From assembly GCA_039680575.1 (NCBI GenBank), contig JBDKSP010000070.1, positions 1-22,246 of the forward strand: DNA of 22,246 nt, in the 5' to 3' direction. This DNA comes from Armatimonadota bacterium. Lineage in GTDB: Bacteria > Armatimonadota > UBA5829 > DTLH01. The position numbers were made by a program, and so were the translations under genes. Shown here in pieces: positions 286-15,312 of the stretch. Numbering within the stretch: the stretch's first letter is position 1; each line of letters starts with the position of its first letter. The notes below the pieces were generated by a model. That model was not told the DNA's origin. It made no database searches and worked only from the letters and a program-made list of their open reading frames with translations.

Positions 286-2037
286 ATGTTTATTCGAGAC
301 AACATACTATCCATACTGATCTTTCTGCCGGTGGCGGCGAGCATAATCGTGCTCCTTATACCGAGACGGTTCGACGCGCTCATCCGCTGGTTCTCGCTTG
401 CAGCAGCCATGGCTGCGTTCGCTTTATCTGTTCCACTTTTCTTCTGGTTCGACCTAAAAACATCGGGGATGCAGTTTCAGCAGTCCGTCCCGTGGGTCGA
501 GACAACCCGGTTTGCCATCAACTACCATGTCGGGATAGATGGGATCAGCCTGTTCCTGGTGCTACTTACTGCATTTCTGGTGCCTGTCGCCATGCTCGCA
601 TCCTGGAGGAGCATCACTGAACGCGCGAGGGAGTTCTATTTCTCGCTTTTGATTCTTCTTGGTGCAATGACCGGCGTATTCGTTTCGCTAGACCTGATAC
701 TCTTCTACGTTTTCTGGGATGCTATGCTGATTCCGATGTATTTCATAATCGGGGTCTGGGGGTACCAGAACCGGATTTATGCCTCGATCAAATTCTTTAT
801 CTACACTCTGGTCGGAAGCCTTTTAATGCTTGTGGCAATCATCTATCTGGGGTTTCGAAACCCCACCGGCGTGACTTTCGACCTTTTGGAGCTGACAGCC
901 GCCGGGCCGATAGCGAAAAGTGTCCAATTCTGGCTTTTCGGGGCATTCGGCCTTGCATTTACGATCAAAATACCGATATTTCCGTTTCATACGTGGCTTC
1001 CTGATGCCCACACGGAGGCTCCAACCGCCGGAAGTGTCATTCTGGCCGGAATTCTTCTCAAAATGGGGGCTTACGGGTTCCTCAGGTTCTGCCTGCCGCT
1101 CTTCCCGGCTGCAGCGGTATACTTTGCGCCGCTCCTTATCGCACTTGGGATAATCGGGATCATCTACGGAGCGCTCGTCGCCTTTGCACAGCCGGATGTA
1201 AAGCGGCTTGTGGCCTATTCGAGCGTAAGCCACCTGGGGTTTGTCGTGCTGGGGATATTCGCGTTCAACATTCAGGGGATTCAAGGTGCATTACTGCTCA
1301 TGATTGCCCACGGGCTTGCGACTGGCGCGATGTTTCTCATTGCCGGCATACTCTACGACCGGCGGCACAGCCGGTTGATGGCCGATTTCGGCGGTGTCTG
1401 GCGGGTGATGCCCGTATTTGGTGGATTTTTTATGATTGCCGCGCTCGCGTCGCTCGGGCTTCCGGGGCTGTCGAATTTTTCAGGCGAGTTTCTGGTGGTA
1501 GTCGGCACGTTCCTCGCCAGAAACTGGATATATGCCGCGCTTGCTGCAAGCGGAGCTGTGCTGTCCGCGATTTACATACTGTGGCTTTACGGAAATGTGA
1601 TGCAGGGGCCGACCGAGAAGCCCGCGGTACGCAGTATGCGCGACCTCACTGTTCGTGAAGTTTTTGTACTCACGCCGGTGGTAATCTTCATCATCCTGCT
1701 CGGCGTCTTCCCCGGTCCTTTTCTTTCGAGAACTGAAGCATCAGCAGTGAGGGTGATGGAAGCTGTGAAAAACAGGGAACAGGAAAGAACAGTCAGTAGT
1801 CAGCCGTCAGCTGTCAGTAAAGACGTCACCCTGAATAGCAAAGACGTCATCCTGAACAATCACTGCGTCACCCTGAACTTGATTCAGGGTCCATTTTCTT
1901 CCTGGATTCCGAGTCAAGCTCGGAATGACGTTGTGATAGTCCAGCATTCAGTTGCAACAACCTGCTGGCATCTTGCATCCCAACCAACCTCTAGCCCCCG
2001 AACCTCATCCTCTGAGGAAAGAGGTGAAAAGCGATGA
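286..2037 (+). CDS. nuoM: NADH-quinone oxidoreductase subunit M with repeat-derived C-terminal extension
   Basis: Multi-TM antiporter-like subunit with motifs GIDGISL, KFFIYT, KIPIFPFHTWLPDAHTEAPT, LLKMGAYG, KRLVAYSSVSHLG, LGLPGLSNFSGEF. Followed by nuoN with an ATGA overlap. Confidence 0.97.
   Translation: MFIRDNILSILIFLPVAASIIVLLIPRRFDALIRWFSLAAAMAAFALSVPLFFWFDLKTSGMQFQQSVPWVETTRFAINYHVGIDGISLFLVLLTAFLVPVAMLASWRSITERAREFYFSLLILLGAMTGVFVSLDLILFYVFWDAMLIPMYFIIGVWGYQNRIYASIKFFIYTLVGSLLMLVAIIYLGFRNPTGVTFDLLELTAAGPIAKSVQFWLFGAFGLAFTIKIPIFPFHTWLPDAHTEAPTAGSVILAGILLKMGAYGFLRFCLPLFPAAAVYFAPLLIALGIIGIIYGALVAFAQPDVKRLVAYSSVSHLGFVVLGIFAFNIQGIQGALLLMIAHGLATGAMFLIAGILYDRRHSRLMADFGGVWRVMPVFGGFFMIAALASLGLPGLSNFSGEFLVVVGTFLARNWIYAALAASGAVLSAIYILWLYGNVMQGPTEKPAVRSMRDLTVREVFVLTPVVIFIILLGVFPGPFLSRTEASAVRVMEAVKNREQERTVSSQPSAVSKDVTLNSKDVILNNHCVTLNLIQGPFSSWIPSQARNDVVIVQHSVATTCWHLASQPTSSPRTSSSEERGEKR
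1816..1878 (+). repeat. 3 x 21-bp tandem repeat within the nuoM extension
   Basis: AGTAAAGACGTCACCCTGAAT / AGCAAAGACGTCATCCTGAAC / AATCACTGCGTCACCCTGAAC, encoding SKDVTLN-SKDVILN-NHCVTLN. Confidence 0.9.
1866..1930. repeat. CGTC-tagged palindromic (REP-like) cloverleaf element (family A), in-frame in nuoM
   Basis: CGTCA-CCCTGAA-CTTGA-TTCAGGG-TCCA-N9-TGGA-TTCCGAG-TCAAG-CTCGGAA-TGACG. A second copy lies at 22122-22246. Confidence 0.9.
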
Positions 2038-3485
2038 GGATTCCGGTCAGCGCGGCGGATTGGCTTGTTGTAATCCCTGAAATTATCCTCATCGTTACGG
2101 CTGCGGTTGTTTTAATGCTGGATGCTTTTACTAAGCGCACATCAGATAAGGCTTCTCCGTGGATTGCGCTCATTGGGTGTTTCGCCGGATTGGTGGCAGT
2201 CGGTCTTATGTGGGGGCGGCATCTTTCCGGGTTCGGCGGAATGGTCATAGCGGACAATTTCTCTGAGCTTGTGAAAATGGTGATACTTACTGCTGCCGCG
2301 CTAAGCATTCTGCTCTCTGTCGATTATGCGAGGCGGGAAGAATTCCAGCAGGGCGAATACTACTCGCTTATGCTCCTCTCCACTGTAGGAATGCTCCTTC
2401 TGGCATCGAGCGCCAACCTGATTATGGTGTTTCTCAGCCTAGAAATGCTTTCAATTGCGCTTTACGTTATGACAGGATTTGCTATCGGCAGGCAGAGGTC
2501 TCAGGAAGCGGGGATGAAATACTTCCTGTTAGGCTCGTTTTCGGCTGCAATCCTGATCTACGGCGTTGCACTCATCTACGGAGCGACCGGCACTGTCGAT
2601 ATGCGGGCTGTAGCGTCTGCGATTGCTTCACGAGGAATGGCCGGTAATCCAATTCTCCTTGCAGGAGCAGGATTAGTGCTGGTAGGACTTGCTTTCAAGG
2701 TGGCGGCGGTCCCGTTTCAGATGTGGGTTCCGGATGTCTACGAAGGTGCGCCGTCACCGGTCACGGCATATATGTCTGTCGCAACAAAAGCGGCGGCGTT
2801 CGCTGCGCTCACGCGGATTCTTGTTTTTACATTCAGCGACCTAAGCAGTATCTGGCTTGCAGCCATCTGGATGTTGGCTGCGCTGACGATGATCGTGGGA
2901 AATGTCGTCGCGATCGCGCAGGATAACATCAAAAGGATGCTTGCATATTCGAGCATTGCTCATGCGGGCTACATATTGGTTGCGGTTGCATCGGCCAATC
3001 AACTCGGTATCCAAAGCATCCCGTTCTACCTTAGCGCCTATGCGTTTATGAACCTCGGCGCGTGGGCGGTGGTAACGGTTGTCACGAAAAAAGGCGAAGA
3101 AGCCACAGGGCTTCATGACTACAGCGGGCTTTTCTGGAGAAACCCACTTCTTGCAAGCTCAATGGCGGTTTTCCTGTTCGGGCTTGCAGGGCTGCCGCCG
3201 ACATCCGGCTTTACAGCAAAAATTTATATTTTTATGGCTGCGGTTAATGCAAATTTAATCGGACTATTGATTGTTGCCATAATAACAACTATAATTTCAG
3301 TCTATTTTTACCTGCGGATAACGGTCATAATGTTTATAGAGAGACGTGAGAGCGAACCCGCAGTCAACGTACCTGTGCCGGTTGCGATAGTTATCGGTAT
3401 TGCAGTAATAGCAACAATCTGGCTTTTTCTATTTCCGAACAGCACTCAGGCTTTCACCGATGCCGTCTGGAGACTAATGCTATGA
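2034..3485 (+). CDS. nuoN: NADH-quinone oxidoreductase subunit N
   Basis: Motifs GEYYSL, EAGMKYFLLGS, FKVAAVPFQMWVPDVYEGAPSPVT, NIKRMLAYSSIAHAGY, GLPPTSGFTAK. RBS-like GAGGTG upstream. Confidence 0.97.
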   Translation: MRIPVSAADWLVVIPEIILIVTAAVVLMLDAFTKRTSDKASPWIALIGCFAGLVAVGLMWGRHLSGFGGMVIADNFSELVKMVILTAAALSILLSVDYARREEFQQGEYYSLMLLSTVGMLLLASSANLIMVFLSLEMLSIALYVMTGFAIGRQRSQEAGMKYFLLGSFSAAILIYGVALIYGATGTVDMRAVASAIASRGMAGNPILLAGAGLVLVGLAFKVAAVPFQMWVPDVYEGAPSPVTAYMSVATKAAAFAALTRILVFTFSDLSSIWLAAIWMLAALTMIVGNVVAIAQDNIKRMLAYSSIAHAGYILVAVASANQLGIQSIPFYLSAYAFMNLGAWAVVTVVTKKGEEATGLHDYSGLFWRNPLLASSMAVFLFGLAGLPPTSGFTAKIYIFMAAVNANLIGLLIVAIITTIISVYFYLRITVIMFIERRESEPAVNVPVPVAIVIGIAVIATIWLFLFPNSTQAFTDAVWRLML

Positions 3486-4048
3486 TTATTCGCAACTTGG
3501 ACGCTGACGAATGCCATCGTTTGGCTGAGATCGACCCGTCATTCGTGACAAACAAGACCTACAGGATCGACAGCGAGAATCCTTTCGAGCCGCGTTTAGT
3601 GGCTGTTGATGCCAATCCCCCGATAGAGGTCATGCCTCCAATCTTTGGCAGCACATCACCCAATGCAGCTATGAGATACTTCGACGAGTATGACCGCTAC
3701 GACCTGTTCCTTGCTGCCGAGGAAGATAACCGGATAGTCGGAGCCGCTTGCTGTATGCCGCTTGTCAGGGATATACCTTTTTGCATGGCAAAGCCGGGCG
3801 AATATATGCTCGCAACGATAGCTGTAGACAGAGAGGAACGTGGAAAAGGTATCGGCCGGCAGTTGCTTGAAACTGTAAAACGCTATTGCGTGGATTCAGG
3901 GAAATCCATGGTCAGTCTTTGGACCGGGTTCGATTACTATCCGGCTGTGAAGTTCTATCTATCTCAGGGTTTTGCTATCTCAGGTTGGATGGTGCATCCG
4001 GGCTGTTATTATGATGAATGCATGATTTATCTTACCTGGAAACCCTAG
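3482..4048 (+). CDS. GNAT family N-acetyltransferase (streptothricin acetyltransferase-like N-terminus)
   Basis: Acetyl-CoA motif A IAVDREERGKGIGRQLL and motif B PAVKFYLSQGF. ATGA overlap with the nuoN stop. Confidence 0.9.
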   Translation: MIIRNLDADECHRLAEIDPSFVTNKTYRIDSENPFEPRLVAVDANPPIEVMPPIFGSTSPNAAMRYFDEYDRYDLFLAAEEDNRIVGAACCMPLVRDIPFCMAKPGEYMLATIAVDREERGKGIGRQLLETVKRYCVDSGKSMVSLWTGFDYYPAVKFYLSQGFAISGWMVHPGCYYDECMIYLTWKP

Positions 4049-4164
4049 CTTTCTTTCCGACTGTGTGACGTGTTGATTGTTCAGGTGATGTATGATTTCA
4101 TTAAGAGTGGATTGTTGCCAATCAGATTGTCAATAATCACTTATGCGGAAGAAAGAAGGGTCTT

Positions 4165-4701
4165 GTGAGCGTGTTGTCTGCACCACGGTATGTCGATGTT
4201 GAAGTAAGCCACCGGTTTCTATTGGAAGTCCAGCAAAAGATAAAGGAATCCGGCTCGCCGGGTGAAGTCGTGCTCGTCGTGCCTCGACCGGGTGGGGGAA
4301 TATTGCTTCACACGAAGTCATTCTATCCGCCCGAGACCTACCGGCTGCCTACCGGTAAGCTGCTGCCTGAAGAGGACTCTCTTGATGCGTTCCACCGGGA
4401 ATTTACCGAGGAACTTGGAACCGAAGGTCGCGTGGACTGCAGCCTCGGCGTGGTTGTACACAGGCTGAAATCCGGAAATGAAGAGCCGGTCGAGTTTGTT
4501 TCACATGTCTATCTGGCGCATGAGATGACCGAAGAACCTGTACCTCAGGACGACGGCGAGCAGATTACCGGGTTTATCGAGGTTTCAGCCAGTGAACTTA
4601 CGAGTGTTGCCGACCGGCTCGAAAATCTCCCTGGACATTGGCTCGACTGGGGACGCTTCCGGGCTATCGCCCATAGGTTTGTGGCTGAAAGCCTTTTGTA
4701 G
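4165..4701 (+). CDS. Nudix hydrolase
   Basis: Nudix box G-x5-E-x7-RE-F-x-EE-x-G (GKLLPEEDSLDAFHREFTEELG). The GTG start is uncertain. Confidence 0.9.
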   Translation: MSVLSAPRYVDVEVSHRFLLEVQQKIKESGSPGEVVLVVPRPGGGILLHTKSFYPPETYRLPTGKLLPEEDSLDAFHREFTEELGTEGRVDCSLGVVVHRLKSGNEEPVEFVSHVYLAHEMTEEPVPQDDGEQITGFIEVSASELTSVADRLENLPGHWLDWGRFRAIAHRFVAESLL

Positions 4702-4891: not shown

Positions 4892-5551
4892 TTACTTCTT
4901 GACCGGAGCTTTTGGAGCCGGAGCAGTTTTCTTTGCAGGTGATACAGTGCTTGATGGTTGTTTCTGCTCAGGTTTGGGTTTTACTGTCTGCTGTGTTTCC
5001 GCTATCTGGGAATACACCTTGATTGCATTCCCGAACCATGCTGCAAGTTTGGGCACATCTACAAATCCGACTGTCCTTGCGACATACAGCCTGCTCTTGT
5101 TAGTGTCAACCCCGACGGCGAGAAAGTCCTGCCCGCCATGCGTATAAACAGCCCCTGCTTTTGCCGGCGCCATCGAGATGTCATAGATGATCCTTGACCA
5201 GCCATCATCGGCAGTGAACTTCGCCTGGTAAAAATCGAGCATTTTGGTTATGTTGGCGGTTTTAGGAATATCGAACTGCAGGACGCGTACCTGGCGCACT
5301 CCCTCGATGGCGGCGGAGAAGCTGTCGATATCGAGCTGCTTTATCAAATCGCCGACTTCTCCCGGCGTACCGGCAGCAGCTTGTGCAAACGCAGGGAGGG
5401 CTTGCTTAATCATCCCGAGTATGTCCGTATCGCTCAGGTTGATCTCTGTAACCAGTGTTGCTCCAACTGGAGCTGGGATTTCGGGCTGCTGGGCATATGA
5501 CGCCGCTGCAAGCAGTGCGAAAGCAATCGTGATCAATACCGTCTTTTTCAT
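4892..5551 (-). CDS. Exported protein, DUF4252-like
   Basis: Signal peptide MKKTVLITIAFALLAAASYA, AGGAG RBS and a Lys/Pro-rich tail. The pattern VTEINLS...VRVLQF...GWSRII...VARTVGFVDVPKL resembles DUF4252. Confidence 0.7.
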   Translation of the reverse strand: MKKTVLITIAFALLAAASYAQQPEIPAPVGATLVTEINLSDTDILGMIKQALPAFAQAAAGTPGEVGDLIKQLDIDSFSAAIEGVRQVRVLQFDIPKTANITKMLDFYQAKFTADDGWSRIIYDISMAPAKAGAVYTHGGQDFLAVGVDTNKSRLYVARTVGFVDVPKLAAWFGNAIKVYSQIAETQQTVKPKPEQKQPSSTVSPAKKTAPAPKAPVKK

Positions 5552-5585
5552 CTTATTTATCTTTCTCCTCGGAAATAATAATGGT

Positions 5586-6179
5586 CTATTTCAACGATCC
5601 GCAGGCGAAATCCACGAAACCTTTACCCATGATCTGCGGAATTGCCGGTGCGATCAGTTCCACGACATTAGCGATGTTCGGACAGCCGGATATCCTTATC
5701 GCTTTTATTTCCGCGCCGGTGGTATTATTGCTTTTGTTCTTCTCGGCTTTTATCGCAACGGCGAAATAACCGCTGTTCTGCGGCAGCGCCAGGATCAGCA
5801 TCCCGGATTCAGGTGTATCTTTGCCGCAGTTGTAAATAACACGATTGCCGTCGACTTTTTTCTCGAAAAGCGCGAGCGTATCGGCGGCCGTATACTTCCC
5901 ATTCAGCTTCATCTCGGCAAACTGCACGCACTCGACCGTACCAAGCGCCTTATCCAGCTTTTCGGAGTCTATCTGCAGGTCGGGGTAGGACTGGCTGAGA
6001 TACATGGGGAGAAGATCCATTATCTGGTCCCTTGTGACGCTCATTTCCGTCGTAACGGCAGCTCCAGCCGGCGTAGGAATCTCAAGAGGAGACTTGGATT
6101 TCTCAGCTTGATCCTGTCCCATAACCGGAACCGCTGCGACGATCATGATGACTGCCATCATAGCGAATAATCTTTTCAT
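5586..6179 (-). CDS. Exported protein, DUF4252-like, paralogue of the adjacent gene
   Basis: Signal peptide MKRLFAMMAVIMIVAAVPVMG. EIPTPAGAAVTTEMSVT aligns with EIPAPVGATLVTEINLS of 4892-5551. GAGGG RBS. Confidence 0.7.
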   Translation of the reverse strand: MKRLFAMMAVIMIVAAVPVMGQDQAEKSKSPLEIPTPAGAAVTTEMSVTRDQIMDLLPMYLSQSYPDLQIDSEKLDKALGTVECVQFAEMKLNGKYTAADTLALFEKKVDGNRVIYNCGKDTPESGMLILALPQNSGYFAVAIKAEKNKSNNTTGAEIKAIRISGCPNIANVVELIAPAIPQIMGKGFVDFACGSLK

Positions 6180-6348: not shown

Positions 6349-6377
6349 TTGACAGTGTAGTTCACCTCTACTATAAT
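6349..6377 (+). promoter_or_regulatory. Consensus sigma70/sigmaA promoter
   Basis: TTGACA (6349-6354), 17-nt spacer, TATAAT (6372-6377), upstream of the six-gene operon. Confidence 0.9.
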
Positions 6378-6443
6378 GTCCGCAATGCCTGCATGAGTGG
6401 ATAGCTCGTGTCCGGCCATCATTTTGAGTGTTGTTTTTACTAC

Positions 6444-6890
6444 GTGAATGCATCTTTGACCGATTCTATCGGCACAAATAATGATGTTGTTCTCCGCTGG
6501 CAGGTTCACCTGGCAAAAGAGCAGCCGCGGAAGCTGATAGTAGTCATCGCCGCAATAATCGCGATGACTGCAATGGCATGCGTCTGGTTCCGCAGCCCTA
6601 TTGCCGTCATCGTAACAGTGCTGGCGCTTATCGGCGCTCTTTCCGATTTCCTCTTGCCCATGACTTTTGTCATAACCACCAAAAATGTCTCCGCTTATAC
6701 ACTGGCAGGTAAGCGTATGATGGCATGGGAGGATGTACGCAAGTGCTACATCGACGAAAGCGGTGTGAAGATCAGCCCGCTTCCGAGGGCATCCCGGCTC
6801 GAAGCATATCGTGGGGTTTACCTGCGCTTCGGGGACCGGAAGGAAGAGGTTATAGCTGCCGTAACCAGGTTGAAACCAAAAGATGGATAA
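6444..6890 (+). CDS. Membrane protein with two TM helices and a bacterial PH-like C-terminal domain
   Basis: Two hydrophobic segments, then FVITTKNV...MAWEDVRK...GVYLRF, a pattern typical of bPH-type domains. Start could be GTG 6444 or GTG 6408. Confidence 0.7.
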   Translation: MNASLTDSIGTNNDVVLRWQVHLAKEQPRKLIVVIAAIIAMTAMACVWFRSPIAVIVTVLALIGALSDFLLPMTFVITTKNVSAYTLAGKRMMAWEDVRKCYIDESGVKISPLPRASRLEAYRGVYLRFGDRKEEVIAAVTRLKPKDG

Positions 6891-7197
6891 TATTGACGAG
6901 CCGTTAGGTGAAGAAGAAGCGCGGAAACTGGCCGAAGAAGTCGCTTCGATGATTGTGAAAAGACGGCTCGAAACGCCGGCAGTGCTATTTTTGGAAATGC
7001 ACAAACCATTGAGCTTCATTGCCAGCCAGGGCATGATAGTAGCGATGCCGTTTCTGGCTCCGCTCCTGGGGCCCGAAAAGGTTTCGAAGTTCAGCCGTTT
7101 CTTGAGAGAACGTGAAAATATAGAGCGCTTGATCCAACGTATAGAGGAATTATCCGAGGAGCGCGATCTGGCGAAGAAGGAGGACGCGCAGAAGTAA
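6883..7197 (+). CDS. Small hypothetical protein
   Basis: 104 aa, overlapping the upstream gene by 8 nt. Motif LETPAVLFLEMHKPLSFIASQ with amphipathic helices. Confidence 0.85.
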   Translation: MDNIDEPLGEEEARKLAEEVASMIVKRRLETPAVLFLEMHKPLSFIASQGMIVAMPFLAPLLGPEKVSKFSRFLRERENIERLIQRIEELSEERDLAKKEDAQK

Positions 7198-7198
7198 C

Positions 7199-7993
7199 AT
7201 GTCACATGCTAATTGGACCGTATATCTGCTTGAGGGAATTGTCGTTTCCCTCATACTGTACAAAATCCTGTCCGCGCGGGCTGGGAAAAAGCTTTTCATC
7301 CGGCGAATACCAGGACTTTCGGCGATAGATGAAGCTGTCGGCCGCGCTACGGAAATGGGGCGACCCATGCTTTACTCGACCGGGCTCGGGGGGCTGGATA
7401 TCGTTTCGCTGCAGTCATTATCGATTCTGTCTCACATTATCAAGGTTGCAGCCAAGTATCGCGCGAGGATTATCGTTCCTACAGCCGATGCACTGCTTTA
7501 TACTATTGCAGAAGAAACCGCGAAGGACGCTTATGAGTCGGAAGGTGCCGGTGAGGCGTTTAACCCGGATGATGTCCAGTATCTTTCCGGTGACCAGTTT
7601 GCCTATGCATCAGGCGTCGTCGGAATCCTGAATAGAGAGAGAGTATCCGCTGCTTTCTACTTCGGTAACTTTTTTGCCGAGTCCCTGATTCTGGCGGAAA
7701 ACGGCCAGCAAGTCGGTGCGATTCAGGTCGCAGGGACACCATGTATCACACAAATCCCGTTCTTCATTGCTTCATGTGACTACACGATTATCGGCGATGA
7801 GTATTATGCGGCAAGCGCATATCTGTCAAGAGAACCCACATTGCTCGGGAGTCTTGTCGGGCAGGACTACGCTAAAGCAATAATCATTATAGTCATTCTG
7901 CTCGGTATCATTTCAGTCTCAACCATAGCCGTATCCACAGTACCGTTTCTTGAAACAATCCTACTCCGCTTTATTGGAGCGTTCAAAGGATAA
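7199..7993 (+). CDS. DUF6754 domain membrane protein
   Basis: N-terminal TM, IRRIPGLSAIDEAVGRATEMGRP, ESLILAE, QIPFFIASCDYTIIGDEYYAASAYLS, GSLVGQD, C-terminal TM. AGGAGG RBS. Confidence 0.88.
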   Translation: MSHANWTVYLLEGIVVSLILYKILSARAGKKLFIRRIPGLSAIDEAVGRATEMGRPMLYSTGLGGLDIVSLQSLSILSHIIKVAAKYRARIIVPTADALLYTIAEETAKDAYESEGAGEAFNPDDVQYLSGDQFAYASGVVGILNRERVSAAFYFGNFFAESLILAENGQQVGAIQVAGTPCITQIPFFIASCDYTIIGDEYYAASAYLSREPTLLGSLVGQDYAKAIIIIVILLGIISVSTIAVSTVPFLETILLRFIGAFKG

Positions 7994-7998
7994 AACTT

Positions 7999-9381
7999 AT
8001 GATAGGAATTACCAACTGCTTATCTACACTTTTTGTCCCGATTCTAGGCTCGCTGGAATATGTATATATCGCAGCATCGATCCTCGTCGGGATAGCCTTC
8101 CTGTTTTTGCTCACCAGAGTGCCGAACCGATGGCGCAGGCCCATAATTATCGGAGTCACATTCGTAGCAGGATGGTTCTACTTCATCGAGTTTATCATCC
8201 CGTCAAGCAGCGAGATGGCGGTTGTTCGCAAGGAGACTCTTGTTGCCGAACGATTGATCCGCCGGGCTGCAAACGATGTTAGCGTGATTGAGAGGCAAGT
8301 AGCAGCGCACAAAGATGTCAGCCCCACCGCCAGTTCCCAGCGAACTGCCAGTGCTGATAAAGACCTGAGCGCCGCGCTTGTTCATTTGAGTAAGATAAAA
8401 TCGGAGCTTGAAAGGGCTAAACCGCGATTCGACAGCAGGATAGAGTCCGAGCTGAAAAAGACCGATGCGTTCGCAAAAAACAACCATCTGACGGATGCAA
8501 TGGTTGTTCGAGATGAATATAACGGTAAGTCCGTAATCGTCAACGGAAAAGTAAAATCGTTGATGAAACGATCGAATGATATAAACAATGCTTACGACAG
8601 CATTACCAAGCCGTTTCCTCCTAAGGGCGAGAAATGGGCAGCCGGAGCTATTGCTCTTGTCGAGAGTGCGAAATCAAAGTTGGGAGGCATAACCCAACCA
8701 GAAAGCAACCTTGCAGGCAGCCTCAATAGTGCCGCCGAACAGACAGCGGCGGCAAGGACGTCTGCGATTGCGGACAACTTCCTGTCTCCCTACAAATTGC
8801 CGCTGGCCACTGTTAACCAGGTTGTCGGGTCTTTCGCATTCGCGATGGGGCTTTTTGGACTGTTCTCTATCCATGGTAAGGCTATCACCAAGAAGAAGAA
8901 GGGTTGGTACAACAGTCTGGCATTTTTCATCGCTATAGCGACAATGACGGTCCTGGGGCTCATGAAGACATATATCACAGGCGGATCGTTAGTCGGTCAG
9001 TTTTCTCGCTCGGCATACAGAATGTTGTTCGAGGGCGGGTTGACTGCGCTGCAGTCGACTATGTTCTCTCTCGTCGCATTCTATATAGTATCAGCAGCCT
9101 ACAGAGCATTCAGGATCAGGTCGGTGGATGCAGTGATTATGCTGGCATCGGCGTTTTTGGTTATGCTGTCGGTTGTTCCAGTCGGAATGTATTTGACGCA
9201 TGGATTGGGCGGCAACTTGGCGTTTCTCAGGTTGGAGAATATAGGCGACTGGATTATGACGATTCCGAATATGGCCGCACAGCGCGGAATGCAGTTCGGT
9301 ATAACCGTCGGCGGACTGGCGATGGCTCTGCGAATATGGTTGAGCCTTGAGCGCGGCAGCTATTTCGATAAGCAGTTGTAA
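7999..9381 (+). CDS. Multi-pass membrane protein with a large soluble helical insert (DUF6754-cluster subunit)
   Basis: Two N-terminal TMs, a soluble region of about 190 aa, then several TMs. Motifs GWYNS, STMFSLVAFYIVSAAYRAFRIRS, PNMAAQRGMQFG, LRIWLSLER. Confidence 0.88.
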   Translation: MIGITNCLSTLFVPILGSLEYVYIAASILVGIAFLFLLTRVPNRWRRPIIIGVTFVAGWFYFIEFIIPSSSEMAVVRKETLVAERLIRRAANDVSVIERQVAAHKDVSPTASSQRTASADKDLSAALVHLSKIKSELERAKPRFDSRIESELKKTDAFAKNNHLTDAMVVRDEYNGKSVIVNGKVKSLMKRSNDINNAYDSITKPFPPKGEKWAAGAIALVESAKSKLGGITQPESNLAGSLNSAAEQTAAARTSAIADNFLSPYKLPLATVNQVVGSFAFAMGLFGLFSIHGKAITKKKKGWYNSLAFFIAIATMTVLGLMKTYITGGSLVGQFSRSAYRMLFEGGLTALQSTMFSLVAFYIVSAAYRAFRIRSVDAVIMLASAFLVMLSVVPVGMYLTHGLGGNLAFLRLENIGDWIMTIPNMAAQRGMQFGITVGGLAMALRIWLSLERGSYFDKQL

Positions 9382-9391
9382 GGAGTTTGGA

Positions 9392-10270
9392 ATGAAATTC
9401 TTGATGAATCTCCAGAATATAGACCGTAGAATAATGTATATCCTGCTTATTGTGGTGGTTGCTATTCCGCTCTATCTGAAATGGAACCAGCCGATAGCTG
9501 TAACGCCCGAAGTAAAATCGCTGTACAACACGGTAGAGAAGATAAAAAACGACAGGATAGAAAAAGGCGAGTACAAGGTAGGTATTATCTCCGTATCATG
9601 GGGAGCCGGAACACTTGCAGAGAACAAGTCCCAGACGGAAGCTGCCGCCAGGCACATGTTCAAAGACGGGATTCCGATAATCCTTCTTCCCTGGGACCAG
9701 CAGGGCAATACGATTGCAACAGAGTCTATTAAGCGGATTGCTGAGGAAATGGGGAAGGAATACGGGAAAGACTGGGTTAGTACCGGCTGGCGGCCATTTG
9801 GTCAAATGGCGCAGATTATACAGAGCCTGCCGCGCGGAGTGTCCGATACGCTCGGTAAGGACATGTACGGTACACCGCTTAAAGATATACCGATGATGAA
9901 AGATGTGAAGGACTATAAAAATATAGGTATCGTGATGGAAGCCACAGGATCAGGCACTGTGGGGTTATGGATCAACTACTTTGGTCAAACTACAGGAGTG
10001 CCTGTTGCATACTTGCCGACTGCTGTGAATGGACCGGAAGGATACAACATGCTGGACGCAGGTCAGATCTGCGGTATGATGCCCGGTCTGATAGGCGCAG
10101 CAAAATATGAGACGCAATTGGCAAAGGATAATCGTGATCTCAAAACAACGGACACCTTTGCGCTTCGCGGCGCGAATGCACTCTCGACTTCACATCTGTT
10201 GATTATCCTGCTTATTATACTCGGCAATATCGGTTATTTTATGTCGCAGTCGCGACGGCAGTTGATGTAG
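9392..10270 (+). CDS. Membrane-anchored alpha/beta protein (DUF6754-cluster subunit)
   Basis: ATG 9392 follows AGGAG (9381-9385). IDRRIMY + TM, YGKDWVSTGW, AGQICGMMPGLIGAAKYE, C-terminal TM HLLIILLIILGNI. Confidence 0.88.
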   Translation: MKFLMNLQNIDRRIMYILLIVVVAIPLYLKWNQPIAVTPEVKSLYNTVEKIKNDRIEKGEYKVGIISVSWGAGTLAENKSQTEAAARHMFKDGIPIILLPWDQQGNTIATESIKRIAEEMGKEYGKDWVSTGWRPFGQMAQIIQSLPRGVSDTLGKDMYGTPLKDIPMMKDVKDYKNIGIVMEATGSGTVGLWINYFGQTTGVPVAYLPTAVNGPEGYNMLDAGQICGMMPGLIGAAKYETQLAKDNRDLKTTDTFALRGANALSTSHLLIILLIILGNIGYFMSQSRRQLM

Positions 10271-10282
10271 GAGGCGATGGCA

Positions 10283-11083
10283 ATGAGTGGGATCATAAGT
10301 TATATGTCAAATCATGTGGTCGGTATCTCTACCGCACTAGGTGTGATCTGTACGCTGGCCATTTTCTCCATACTTTACAAGGAGAACCCTTATTACAGGC
10401 TTTTCGAGCACATATTTATCGGGCTAGCCTGCGGACAGGGTGTATACATGACTTGGACCGACATGCTCAAACCCAAGTGGTGGGATGTTATGTTCGTTCA
10501 AGGACAGTGGTGGTGGGCTCTTGCGCTTCCTGCCGGACTGATGTTTTATTTTGTCTTCAGTAAGAAGAATGCATGGATAAGCAAACTCATGTTTGGGTTC
10601 CTTATGGGACTCGGTGCAGGAATGGCGTTCCAGGACTTCGCCAATACGACGATCCCGCAGGTGCGAGGATCGTTCAAGCCTGTAATACCCGCGCCAGGTA
10701 TCCCGACAACTGAAGCGATAAACAACTTCGTATTCGTGTTTATCCTGATCACCATTATGTCTTATTTCTTCTTCTCGATAGACCATAAGACAAAGACCAT
10801 GCGGGGGTCAGCAAAGCTCGGTAGATGGTTCCTGATGTTCGCGTTCGGCGCAATGTTCGGATCGACCGTTATGGCGAGGATGGCTCTCTTCATAGGGAGA
10901 TTGGATTACCTGATCAGTTGGGGGACATCGGTCTCTTTACTGGGATGGATTATAACGATTGGAATAATTGCCCTCATATTGATCTTATACTTCCTCTTCA
11001 GACCGCAGCCGCCTAAGAAGATGGAAGGGGTTTATGCCGGAGAGCCGGCTAAGGAATTGCCCGCTGAGGCTACTGAATCATAA
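10283..11083 (+). CDS. Multi-pass membrane protein (DUF6754-cluster subunit)
   Basis: AGGAGG RBS favours ATG 10283 (alternative 10277). Motifs TLAIFSILYKENPYYRLFEHIFIG, SYFFFS, GRWFLMFAFGAMFGSTVMARM. Confidence 0.88.
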   Translation: MSGIISYMSNHVVGISTALGVICTLAIFSILYKENPYYRLFEHIFIGLACGQGVYMTWTDMLKPKWWDVMFVQGQWWWALALPAGLMFYFVFSKKNAWISKLMFGFLMGLGAGMAFQDFANTTIPQVRGSFKPVIPAPGIPTTEAINNFVFVFILITIMSYFFFSIDHKTKTMRGSAKLGRWFLMFAFGAMFGSTVMARMALFIGRLDYLISWGTSVSLLGWIITIGIIALILILYFLFRPQPPKKMEGVYAGEPAKELPAEATES

Positions 11084-11102
11084 GCTATCATAGATCTGCT
11101 GT

Positions 11103-11137
11103 AAAAGGACGGAGTCGAAAAATTCCGTCCTTTTTTT
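11103..11137 (+). terminator. Rho-independent terminator
   Basis: AAAA-GGACGGAGT-CGAAAA-ATTCCGTCC-TTTTTTT, about 20 nt after the last operon gene. Confidence 0.9.
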
Positions 11138-11216: not shown

Positions 11217-11576
11217 ATGCATATGGACGAAATGGATATGCTGCTCGCGGAGGCTGCATCGTTTGCCGATGATGTGATAGCGGATCTTGACCGGGTTTCG
11301 GAAACTGACTCGCCCGATGATGCGAAGGAGGCCGTGCATGAGGCACTGCGTTTGGGCGAAGGGATGATGAACAGGCTGGAAGATGCTCTGGACCTTGTGG
11401 AGTCTGAAGAGGACCAGTCACGCATCGAAATGGCTATCGTGAATATGGAAGACGCCTTGGACTCGGGACATCTGGCGCTGACATCGGACAACCCCGTAAA
11501 AGACCTGGAAAATATGCGGTCAAAGGTGGAAGAAGCTGTTGTACAGTTATCAGCTTACGAGGAGATCTATGAATAG
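11217..11576 (+). CDS. Highly acidic helical hypothetical protein
   Basis: D/E-rich ORF of about 119 aa. The GAGGG RBS may favour ATG 11223. Converges on the phosphorylase gene. Confidence 0.75.
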   Translation: MHMDEMDMLLAEAASFADDVIADLDRVSETDSPDDAKEAVHEALRLGEGMMNRLEDALDLVESEEDQSRIEMAIVNMEDALDSGHLALTSDNPVKDLENMRSKVEEAVVQLSAYEEIYE

Positions 11577-13359: not shown

Positions 13360-13938
13360 CTATTCCTCCGTTATCCGTCTTGCTGCAGCGAGTTTTGCCC
13401 GAACGAGCAGCCTGCCCGATTCTGAACCGAAAAACGGGCGGCCTGTACAGGTTATCAGTGTAAGTGTCGGACTCCGGGTGTCTGCGAGCGCCTGTATATC
13501 GTTCGGGCTTACTACCTCCTGTCCCGTTACTCTGTAGGTATAACTCATTTTCTCGGACTCAAGATTCACTATATCCCCGCTGGATAACCGCGCAAGCCCG
13601 CGAAACCACTTTTCTTTGTGCGCCGCTATACAGCAGTTACCGGGATGACCGGGGTCGGGCGTTCCGGCCATGTGCATCGGTCCCTTATCCAGATCAGACT
13701 CACTGACTTCTTCGACTACCACCGCATCCAGGTCCAACTTCGGTATTATCAATCTGTACCGCTGAGGCTGAAGTGACTGCGTCCCTCTTTTTTGATTATT
13801 GTCCCATATTTTTCGCTCACTCGACTGGAGATTTCCCGCTCGCAGAGACCAAATGATAGGTGTAAACAGGCATATCAACCCTGCAACTATAAGAAATTCC
13901 GCAAAAACCGGTAATTTTGTCAGGCGTAACCCTTGCAT
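13360..13938 (-). CDS. Sortase (class D/E-like)
   Basis: N-terminal TM, LIIPKL, and catalytic His/Cys/Arg in GNCCIAAH, TLTLITC and GRLLVRA. Confidence 0.92.
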   Translation of the reverse strand: MQGLRLTKLPVFAEFLIVAGLICLFTPIIWSLRAGNLQSSERKIWDNNQKRGTQSLQPQRYRLIIPKLDLDAVVVEEVSESDLDKGPMHMAGTPDPGHPGNCCIAAHKEKWFRGLARLSSGDIVNLESEKMSYTYRVTGQEVVSPNDIQALADTRSPTLTLITCTGRPFFGSESGRLLVRAKLAAARRITEE

Positions 13939-13961
13939 ATTGACTGTACCTCATGTATAAT
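13933..13961 (+). promoter_or_regulatory. Putative sigma70 promoter of the C39 peptidase gene
   Basis: TTGCAT (13933-13938), 17-nt spacer, TATAAT (13956-13961). The -35 box overlaps the sortase start codon on the other strand. Confidence 0.65.
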
Positions 13962-14005
13962 GAAAACAGGCGCTGCTTTTTAAGGAACCGCAGTACCGTA
14001 GTAGT

Positions 14006-14779
14006 ATGAAACAATCAAGACCCCTCCTGGTATTATCAATCGCCCTGTCAATGCTTCTGATTGGGGTATTACCCACATTCAGCGAGAAGATTCCTTCGCG
14101 TTGCCTGCTTTCAGGTGTACCGTATGTCAAGCAATTGACCAATTATTGCGGCCCGGCGACTCTTACCACCGTGCTGAAATACTGGCAGGCGGATGCCAAC
14201 CAGGAATCAATCGGTGAGGAAGTATATGACAGCAGCATAAAAGCTACCAATGGCGCTGATATGATGCTGTACGCCCGGAAAAGGGGTTTTTCCGCTTATT
14301 CCTGGAACAGCAGCCTCCCGGACCTCAAAGAAAAACTCACGCTCGGCATCCCTGTAATCGTGCTTCAGGACACGAGTGTTACGGATAGATCAGGGCATTA
14401 TCGCGTTGCTACCGGGTACGATGAGACAGCAGGAGTCGTATATGTGAGCGATCCGTATGAACCGGATAAAAAGCAGATCGACTACGATATGTTCCTGACG
14501 CTTTGGCAGCGGCACGGAAACTGGAGCCTTCTCGTATGTCCGGCTAAACGGGACGTATTCAAGCAGGATCTGGACGAGAAGAACCCTGTAGTCCATATAG
14601 ATCTCGCGTACATCTACTACAAACGCGGTGACAATAAGGCTGCAGAAAGAGAGAGCCGTCTCGCGCTTGCGCTTGAACCTCAGAACTACAGCGCGCAGTT
14701 GCTTTTATCAAAAGCGATAAGCGCTGCCGGAACTCGCAACATGGTAGATAAGTCTGCCGGAAAACAGAAAAATCACTGA
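14006..14779 (+). CDS. Exported C39-like cysteine peptidase with C-terminal TPR
   Basis: Signal peptide, VPYVKQLTNYCGPA (Gln/Cys), GHYRVATGYD (His), VSDP (Asp), and TPR-like LAYIYYKRGDNKAAERESRLALALEP. Confidence 0.88.
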   Translation: MKQSRPLLVLSIALSMLLIGVLPTFSEKIPSRCLLSGVPYVKQLTNYCGPATLTTVLKYWQADANQESIGEEVYDSSIKATNGADMMLYARKRGFSAYSWNSSLPDLKEKLTLGIPVIVLQDTSVTDRSGHYRVATGYDETAGVVYVSDPYEPDKKQIDYDMFLTLWQRHGNWSLLVCPAKRDVFKQDLDEKNPVVHIDLAYIYYKRGDNKAAERESRLALALEPQNYSAQLLLSKAISAAGTRNMVDKSAGKQKNH

Positions 14780-14790
14780 CGTTCGTCTAT

Positions 14791-15312
14791 TCAGATCATC
14801 GTATTTCTTCTCCTCATCGCAATTCCGGCTGCTATCATGGCTCCACCCAGCAATGAAATCCAGCCAAGTTCAATCCCCGCGCGTGGGATCAGTGCACCGT
14901 CCGCTTTTGTGACAGATGAGACCTCTTCTGTGAAGCCGCCTGCAGGAACCAAACTGGAAGAGCCCGGACCGGCTCCGACTCCGGCGGGTGTGGATTGGGT
15001 GGTTGGTTCAGTCATATCGATCTTCGGCACTGTCCGGTTATCAGTTGGGGTCGTTGGTTCAACCACTGTCGGAGGAGCAACTTCCCCGGGTTGTTCCGGC
15101 ACGGGTGTTACTTGTGGTTCTTCAGGTTCTGTCACCGGAGCAGCCGGCGCTTGGACTCCACCGGGTGTGATGGTAGTCGTTCCTCCAACATTTGGCGTCG
15201 GGCCTCCAACATCGGGCGTAGAAACCTGTGCCTGTATTGCTCGCGTGAATACAGGGCTGGTCAAGGATAAAAGAATTACTATTATAACCAGTATATAGAG
15301 TGGATTTCGCAT
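14791..15312 (-). CDS. Pro/Thr-rich surface protein with a sortase-type sorting signal (IPRAG-TM-RRR)
   Basis: N-terminal signal peptide, low-complexity P/T/V/E body, C-terminal IPRAG + hydrophobic helix + RRRN. AGGAGG RBS. Confidence 0.8.
   Translation of the reverse strand: MRNPLYILVIIVILLSLTSPVFTRAIQAQVSTPDVGGPTPNVGGTTTITPGGVQAPAAPVTEPEEPQVTPVPEQPGEVAPPTVVEPTTPTDNRTVPKIDMTEPTTQSTPAGVGAGPGSSSLVPAGGFTEEVSSVTKADGALIPRAGIELGWISLLGGAMIAAGIAMRRRNTMI

Follow-up and report, generated by a model that had tools for sequence, protein, structure and literature searches.

A DUF6754 membrane operon of Armatimonadota and its remotely encoded actin-fold ATPase as parts of a putative ATP-driven transporter

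Introduction

Which machine is built from the six genes (g1 to g6) grouped around a DUF6754 gene in the window, the 22,246-nucleotide stretch of Armatimonadota DNA analyzed here, and do these genes suffice for it? The original prediction saw in them a complete operon for an uncharacterised membrane complex, for example an ATP-independent transporter or ion-coupled translocase, with a core of four subunits (g3 to g6) and two accessory proteins (g1 and g2). In Pfam, g3 is a full member of DUF6754 (PF20539), an entry without function that covers one of the eight genes which we assign below to the system. A literature search to which most subscription papers and supplements were closed returned nothing naming DUF6754, PF20539, NF040745, TIGR01319 or NF040744; a second one, again with most subscription papers outside its reach, returned nothing on glutamate mutase, mutL and reactivase together. 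Two passages of PMC5167688 are silent on the DUF6754 system.

Results

A compact operon with a single annotated product

The six reading frames follow each other with an 8-nt overlap and subsequent gaps of 1, 5, 10 and 6 nt (Table 1). Given these spacings of at most 10 nt, the promoter matching the consensus at 12 of 12 positions and the 13-pair terminator hairpin, the predicted co-directional operon stands. Its promoter is the best among 16 promoter-like sites between positions 4000 and 14000, a region for which shuffled sequence yielded a mean of 11.0 sites scoring at least 9/12; perfect sites number 30 across the 2.97 Mb genome, with about one expected under even base use. In relatives, 23 of 29 loci have a promoter matching at least 10/12 no more than 200 nt ahead of g1, a raw count without shuffle control. 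The order g1 to g6 is kept across Armatimonadota, and the synteny expected from a neighbourhood search thus held throughout the phylum. An Rfam scan of the window matched no RNA family, and a plasmid search matched no g3 homologue.

Table 1. Features of the DUF6754 operon in the window
Feature	Position	Strand	Basis
Sigma-70-type promoter, TTGACA-17-TATAAT	6349..6377	+	consensus match 12/12
g1, 145-160 aa, small beta-rich domain preceded by two hydrophobic helices	6408..6890	+	ORF
g2, 104 aa, small helical protein	6883..7197	+	ORF; occurrence and gene orders
g3 (DUF6754), 264 aa, one TM segment on either side of a six-stranded Rossmann-like domain predicted to be cytoplasmic	7199..7993	+	PF20539; model; topology
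g4, 460 aa, core of six TM segments, N-terminus predicted inside	7999..9381	+	topology from alignment hydropathy
g5, 292 aa, one TM segment on either side of an alpha/beta domain predicted to lie outside the cytoplasm	9392..10270	+	topology from alignment hydropathy
g6, 268 aa, core of six TM segments, N-terminus predicted outside; close relatives have a seventh	10277..11083	+	topology from alignment hydropathy
Intrinsic terminator	11103..11137	+	13-pair hairpin 11103-11134, then T run

Profile searches assign none of the six products to a characterised transporter; g3 alone passes a Pfam or NCBIfam cut-off (322.3 bits against PF20539, curated cut-off 27), and g1, g2, g4, g5 and g6 stay below every one. 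The six products are correctly described as lacking an ATPase motif, and their mostly membrane-embedded nature agrees with alignment hydropathy, which yields two TM segments for g3, six for g4, two for g5 and six to seven for g6; the two helices of g1 were read by eye only. Translation of g1 might start at GTG 6444 or TTG 6456 rather than at 6408. For g5, we favour ATG 9392 over TTG 9347, with AAGGAG upstream and M1 kept in at least 90% of 98 rows. The beta-rich domain of g1 may be bPH-like; a Pfam search gave no match.

A weaker third hydropathy peak of g3, at residues 63-81, falls on a helix that our model (pLDDT 93.9) places within the soluble domain. Three hhalign profile alignments of g3 with g5 share the same register and are suggestive of homology, with a probability of 2-4.7% and P 0.0085-0.025; the reversed control reached P 0.11. 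The g4 family is large (2913 clusters at 50% identity) and has a median length of 272 aa; members of at least 400 aa are found in 10 of 125 cases, and in the protein studied here the first outer loop contains about 190 aa of inserted sequence specific to the lineage. Six natural proteins carry the g5 domain within the outer TM3-TM4 loop of g4; a search for longer g5 forms, weak evidence in itself, found none. An apparent g5-g6 fusion at one locus (L072) reflects a frameshift in that record. Comparison of the g4 and g6 profiles showed no significant similarity, and the model of a g4-type protein (pTM 0.53) gave a best fold-search Z of 5.7, on single helices.

A remote ATPase and its partner co-occur with the operon

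Two further genes, located on another contig of this genome (C92), encode an ATPase and a partner protein. The ATPase is a long actin-fold (ASKHA) member of the GlmL/MutL family that matches PF13941 over all 450 positions with 423 bits, and its closest named families, GlmL and Or-4, are accessory proteins of B12 mutases. Its motifs D11-C-G-S-T-T-x-K18, D286-I-G-G-A-T-T-D293 and S421-G-G, which we take to be phosphate-1, phosphate-2 and adenosine, show little or no variation across 60 rows. The protein hence carries intact ASKHA motifs, and its ATP hydrolysis is putative. The partner is a barrel-sandwich protein with an RnfC/NqrA-like domain match (E 1.8e-4, under the cut-off). Neither these two proteins nor the six operon products match an ABC family in Pfam or NCBIfam.

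Among 151 genomes of the phylum, DUF6754 and the ATPase are both present in 131 and both absent from 18; the ATPase occurs alone in two and DUF6754 alone in none. The 18 negative genomes fall in four families, in one of which the whole system is missing from all 14 genomes. In Planctomycetota, from most of whose genomes the system is missing, 32 of 121 genomes possess DUF6754, and all 30 with a full-length ATPase are among them. The partner gene follows the same pattern of presence and absence. Since the genomes are kin and not independent, these counts overstate the number of events. Evidence against coupling comes from the two planctomycetal genomes with DUF6754 but without the ATPase (G237 and G240) and from 3 of 10 genomes from other phyla, reached through their loci and of completeness not given, in which no ATPase was matched.

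Both genes lie on one contig within about 7 kb, judged by eye, in 19 of the 131 and 17 of the 30 genomes; the joined loci show two gene orders, and in many genomes across several phyla all eight genes form one operon. Collectively, the six operon genes, the remote ATPase and its partner are eight genes gained and lost together. The check by profiles and neighbourhoods supports a conserved operon whose membrane proteins are uncharacterised. Its completeness is not supported, with the ATPase and partner encoded elsewhere here, co-operonic in many genomes and co-lost with the remaining genes; nor is independence of ATP, as none of the 131 DUF6754-positive genomes of the phylum lacks the ATPase.

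Genuine operon membership of g1 and g2 is evident from their co-occurrence with DUF6754: g1 matched strongly in 10/10 positive against 0/20 negative genomes (where two marginal short matches reached E about 7e-4), and g2 was found in 20/20 against 0/20. All five second copies of g3-g6 are without both genes, so that g1 and g2 appear to belong to a shared ATPase module and not to serve as accessories of the four-gene core; g2 adjoins the ATPase on its upstream side in eight-gene operons. The system is present in single copy in this genome, and all nine genomes of one genus (g39) have two to three DUF6754 matches and one ATPase.

Complex prediction for the ATPase with g3(24-232) and g2 scored 0.47, compared with 0.00 for the best of three controls, one of which had g3 alone replaced; the runs share at least 89% of contacts, with a partner pLDDT of at least 78. 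In our calibration, 116 of 157 solved pairs attained the mark, as did 2 of 215 mismatched ones; 18 of the 157 solved pairs and both mismatches did so with scores at or below 0.60, and the ATPase prediction is unlike the calibration set. The prediction lends weak support to an ATPase-g3 contact, and the modeled Rossmann-like domain of g3 is the likely docking site.

Discussion

Our data suggest that the six operon genes likely supply the membrane half of a hitherto unstudied and undescribed type of uptake machine, probably powered by ATP. We tentatively favour, at slightly less than an even chance, an ATP-driven membrane transporter formed by all eight genes, with the remote actin-fold ATPase as motor; import is its most likely task. 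The gene order, the joint operons, the co-occurrence and the ATPase motifs are observations; the architecture is predicted, and the movement of a cargo is our own deduction from it. The six-helix proteins g4 and g6, of opposite predicted orientation, would provide the membrane core, with the Rossmann-like domain of g3 in the cytoplasm and the similar-looking domain of g5 outside. A cargo might be caught at the outer face by g5 and by variable outer domains on g3, one cluster of which carries an FN3 domain, and on g4. The ATPase, predicted to dock on the g3 domain, would close and open its cleft with ATP binding and hydrolysis, pull on g3 and thereby move the cargo. ATPase, partner, g1 and g2 may constitute one shared motor module for one or more exchangeable g3-g6 modules. 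That the direction is import is a guess. A more specific version, which we hold with somewhat greater reserve, envisions a new class of primary active transporters in which this actin/Hsp70-fold module drives exchangeable four-subunit modules. Each of the latter would consist of an ancient inverted pair, (g3,g4) and (g5,g6), and each membrane face would bear one Rossmann-like domain.

Several considerations weigh against the transporter. We know of no transporter class with an ASKHA ATPase as its motor; to our knowledge, the motors of ATP-driven solute transporters are of the ABC, P-type or rotary kind. Relatives of the ATPase either reactivate other proteins as chaperones or phosphorylate substrates as enzymes. 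The 67 flanking genes surveyed (of 83 picked) include one family-5 binding protein and one M24 peptidase; neither a recurring substrate-binding protein nor a catabolic pathway was among them, and, lineage neighbours like RecO aside, no family recurred.

The same ancestry permits an ATP-driven remodelling or translocation machine in which the reactivase/Hsp70-like ATPase, working at the membrane, pulls on or releases a protein or polymer for export, envelope assembly or membrane-protein quality control, without solute import. This fits GlmL and Or-4 as nearest named families, the weak resemblance of the partner's middle domain to RraA (E 0.049), a swivel fold as in diol dehydratase reactivase, and the near-universal, mostly single-copy occurrence with a strong conserved promoter in the class, reminiscent of a housekeeping function. 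The complete absence of the system from one family and its absence from most Planctomycetota, the several membrane modules per ATPase with variable outer domains, which suit the capture of different cargoes, and the want of a recurring secreted substrate among the flanking genes make such a machine rather unlikely. Far less room is left for the idea that the ATPase simply reactivates a B12 mutase, as GlmL does, and that the membrane genes support the pathway of this mutase. Despite the strong Pfam MutL match, the ATPase falls below the NCBIfam equivalog cut-offs (GlmL NF040745, 227.1 < 475; Or-4 NF040744, 215.4 < 600) and is longer by about 130 aa; the E subunit of glutamate mutase (PF06368), the enzyme that GlmL is known to serve, was matched weakly and partially in 1 of 151 genomes and not in ours, which is 96.8% complete. 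We consider this idea largely refuted and scarcely credible. A search of this genome for ornithine/lysine aminomutase (PF09043) gave no match, but its controls were equally silent.

The ATPase could also act chemically, phosphorylating or hydrolysing a substrate that arrives via g3-g6, in the manner of hydantoinase/oxoprolinase-type enzymes or sugar kinases. It passes the Hydantoinase_A cut-off (25.5 versus 22.9 bits), and its invariant H241, H380, H427, C12 and C480 could be catalytic or metal ligands; Cys193 of g3 is conserved at 98%. However, the match spans a 50-residue stretch covering only the shared phosphate-2 motif, and the 67 flanking genes include neither a recurrent hydantoinase B-type subunit nor a recurrent gene of such a pathway; we regard coupled chemistry as improbable. 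To a similar degree we doubt a transmembrane sensor or gated channel, with g5 and the outer domains sensing and the g3 domain gating or signalling to the ATPase like RCK/KTN domains. Such domains are indeed among the fold matches of g3 (KtrC, Z 9.8, rmsd 2.7, 114 aligned; GsuK, Z 9.8; MthK, Z 9.6), but they tie with many unrelated Rossmann folds of up to Z 10.6 at no more than 14% identity, and no regulator or kinase is fixed in the gene set. The self-sufficient transporter of the original prediction, ATP-independent or ion-coupled, draws on an operon with its own promoter and terminator but no ATPase gene, and on the two genomes that possess DUF6754 alone. The strict accompaniment by the ATPase within the phylum, the joint operons in several phyla and conserved charged residues that, by eye on the consensus lines, gather near the ends of helices and not in the middle of the membrane render it very unlikely.

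Compared with known systems, the putative transporter resembles several in part. Like GlmL/MutL and Or-4, the ATPase covers the entire PF13941 profile; it differs by its longer C-terminus, by genomes devoid of glutamate mutase and by its tie to a membrane module. As in the proposed machine, ECF transporters of group II have one energising module, often encoded apart, that serves one or several exchangeable membrane modules; they rely on ABC ATPases with T and S components, families that none of the eight proteins matches in Pfam or NCBIfam. Nqr/Rnf recalls the partner's RnfC/NqrA-like barrel-sandwich domain and the six-helix g4 and g6, since NqrD and NqrE are six-helix proteins of opposite orientation. 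In contrast to Nqr/Rnf, neither the 128 rows of g4 nor the 93 rows of g6 have a cysteine column conserved at 50% or more, and the gene set includes neither an Fe-S nor a flavin subunit. The diol dehydratase reactivase DdrAB also combines an ASKHA ATPase with a swivel-type domain and has a Rossmann-like subunit as its target; it is soluble and acts on a B12 enzyme. The ATPase and partner profiles gave no sequence match to DdrAB, and a cobalamin-binding-type domain was absent from the top 50 fold matches of g3. Sequence searches of the PDB with g3, g4, g5, g6, the ATPase and the partner returned nothing significant, Foldseek with two models gave no match at E <= 0.001, and the ESM Atlas yielded only unnamed clusters or DUF6754 itself.

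The system is large, as judged from its g4 clusters, is present in most genomes of the phylum and extends into several others. The parts list, the predicted contact between the ATPase and DUF6754 and the single copy in this genome make the proposal directly testable. If it is true, an actin-fold motor acting on an unrecognised membrane core would represent a new kind of transporter.

The operon and its conservation

The promoter, six co-directional genes and terminator of the original prediction all withstood closer reading (see the table of features). The six ORFs, designated g1 to g6, follow one another with an overlap of 8 nt and then gaps of 1, 5, 10 and 6 nt, and each occurs once in the genome. 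Perfect promoter sites number 30 genome-wide, this one included, and a site matching at least 10 of 12 positions precedes g1 in 23 of 29 relatives' loci. Only g3 belongs to a named family, DUF6754 (PF20539); NCBIfam yielded no further family names for the six proteins, and Rfam none in the window.

Features of the window
Feature	Position	Strand	Description
NuoM/NuoN-like genes	286-4701	+	two, by eye; then GNAT and NUDIX genes
Divergent gene pair	4892-6179	-	exported-looking products of 219 and 197 aa, mutually similar by eye; no Pfam match, no significant NCBIfam match
Promoter	6349-6377	+	12/12 consensus match
g1 to g6	6408-11083	+	six ORFs, read from the window
Terminator	11103-11134	+	13-pair hairpin
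Acidic protein gene	11217-11576	+	very acidic, 119 aa; beside the operon in only three loci, same family
Sortase-like gene and neighbours	13360-15312		by eye; close to a Pro/Thr-rich exported protein (terminal IPRAG motif, hydrophobic tail) and a C39-like peptidase

PF20539 is present in 40 of 41 close genomes and in 131 of 151 genomes of the phylum, Armatimonadota to judge from the names of homologues. Synteny, the check originally proposed, holds in other genomes: g1-g2-g3-g4-g5-g6 is the commonest order (72 fetched loci, a non-random sample in which some genomes count twice), and the g3-g6 order is kept in records whose titles name Planctomycetota, WOR-3, Poribacteria, Latescibacterota and Stahlbacteria. 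Where g3-g6 is present a second time, g1 and g2 are missing from that copy (five of five cases). Since g4-g6 are absent after g1-g2-g3 in three loci and after g2-g3 in two (L065, L070, L094, L095, L098), the operon can split. Tandem duplication of g3 alone within the operon was seen in loci L036, L038, L046, L068, L072 and L073. In L072 (9726-11297), g6 and most of g5 are linked by a frameshifted stretch into one ORF of 523 aa, which probably reflects an error in the deposited sequence.

A remote ATPase accompanies the operon

We consider it very likely that g1-g6 work with an ATPase encoded on another contig, C92. It is the product of the only PF13941 gene in the genome, a long actin-fold protein of the GlmL/MutL family whose nucleotide-binding motifs are retained in an alignment of 60 rows; the next gene encodes a partner of 373 aa, in which a barrel-sandwich domain resembling that of RnfC/NqrA was matched under the cut-off. 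The ATPase is present in 133 of the same 151 phylum genomes: 131 hold both it and DUF6754, 18 neither, two the ATPase only, and none DUF6754 only. The 18 double absences are confined to four families (14 in one) and hence represent few events. In a second phylum, DUF6754 occurs in 32 of 121 genomes and the full-length ATPase in 30, all within those 32; the exceptions there are two genomes with DUF6754 only, one with only a shorter, different MutL, and two matches under the cut-off. Among genomes of other phyla reached via loci, seven of ten hold the ATPase.

The membership of g1 and g2 in the operon, as originally predicted, is corroborated by their distribution: g2 was found in 20/20 DUF6754-positive versus 0/20 negative genomes, and g1 in 10/10 positives, with strong matches in 0/20 negatives. 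The partner occurs in 10/10 positives and, among negatives, only in the two holding the ATPase. All nine genomes of one genus list two to three DUF6754 matches and one ATPase, and the multi-copy genomes G053 and G084 have one g2 match each; several DUF6754 copies per single ATPase support the shared-motor part of the mechanism proposed below. Four second-phylum genomes (G210, G234, G270 and G179) carry two to three long ATPase copies, one of them more divergent (E about 1e-105 to 1e-109).

Among loci picked for linkage, 12 have the order g1-g2-ATPase-partner-g3-g4-g5-g6 and further ones vary on it; in eight, and in one variant, the ATPase comes after g1-g6. By eye, genome listings show the ATPase and DUF6754 genes no more than about 7 kb apart in 19/131 and 17/30 genomes. 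The window's gene order equals the eight-gene order minus the ATPase-partner pair. This pair may form its own unit, because a 10/12 promoter-like site lies immediately upstream of the ATPase gene (L152:9564, minus strand of C92).

Topology, folds and a predicted contact

Hydropathy and the positive-inside rule across alignments predict g3 as N-out with its domain inside, g5 as N-in with its domain outside, g4 as N-in with six helices, and g6 as N-out with six or seven. In the g3 model (pLDDT 93.9, pTM 0.86), two membrane helices flank an alpha/beta domain of six strands. As modeled, this domain is a generic Rossmann-like fold: Foldseek returned no match at E <= 0.001, and the best fold match, phosphoglycerate kinase (Z 10.6, rmsd 3.4, 147 aligned), is tied with dehydrogenases, sirtuins, GT-B enzymes and RCK domains, at no more than 14% identity.

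Within the g4 family (2913 clusters), six natural proteins (P0205, P0271-P0274, P0330; one labelled Zixibacteria) carry a g5 domain in the TM3-TM4 loop, which is predicted outside; this would place the g5 domain beside g4, on the outer side. In P0205 it looks circularly permuted by eye. The 446-residue P0205 model (pLDDT 70.1, pTM 0.53) has confident membrane helices and an unreliable second half of the g5 domain, the first half showing the helix-strand-helix-strand-helix run of g3; two fold searches found it no relative. Profile comparison set g3 and g5 in register without significance and gave nothing significant for g4 against g6, so that an ancient inverted pair, (g3,g4) and (g5,g6), stays hypothetical. 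Outer parts vary: some g3 proteins bear an FN3 domain, and the g4 encoded in the window has an inserted helical segment. Large added domains (ankyrin-, propeller-, SLBB-, PDZ-like or helical, by eye) were noted in P0137, P0149, P0160, P0168, P0196, P0250, P0300 and P0307 of the g4 family.

Complex prediction with the ATPase, g3 residues 24-232 and g2 scored 0.47, against 0.00 for the best of three controls and 0.00 when g3 alone was swapped; at least 89% of contacts agreed between runs, with a partner pLDDT of at least 78. The score mark was reached by 116/157 solved and 2/215 mismatched pairs. Scores of at most 0.60 comprise 18/157 solved pairs and both mismatches, so the prediction hints weakly at an ATPase-g3 contact, the odds of which are raised modestly because the guess came from genomics and preceded the prediction.

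A tentative mechanism and its alternatives

Confidence in the function of the machine is much lower than in its pairing with the ATPase. Our leading, still tentative reading is an ATP-driven importer. The ATPase, its partner, g1 and g2 would form a shared motor that docks on g3 and drives the g3-g6 membrane module, whose outer face would select the cargo; flanking genes offered no cargo clues. Transport, as originally suggested, is thus retained, but the proposed independence from ATP is not: an ATP-independent carrier is improbable, with the ATPase present in all 131 DUF6754-positive phylum genomes. A remodelling or translocation machine seems rather unlikely, and transport coupled to chemistry, or sensing or gating, more unlikely still. 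Support of B12 mutases, the role of GlmL and Or-4, is the least credible, since the ATPase scores below both the GlmL and the Or-4 cut-offs and glutamate mutase, GlmL's known client, was matched in 1/151 phylum genomes, weakly.

In the tests run, nothing here was recognised as a member of a studied system, and PDB sequence searches with g3-g6, the ATPase and the partner found no solved relatives; nor was the system described in the literature searched, most subscription papers lying outside its reach. The present analysis adds that g1, g2 and the partner are lost jointly with the other genes, as well as a predicted ATPase contact that depends on g3, the recurrent fusion of g4 with the g5 domain, and a conserved promoter.
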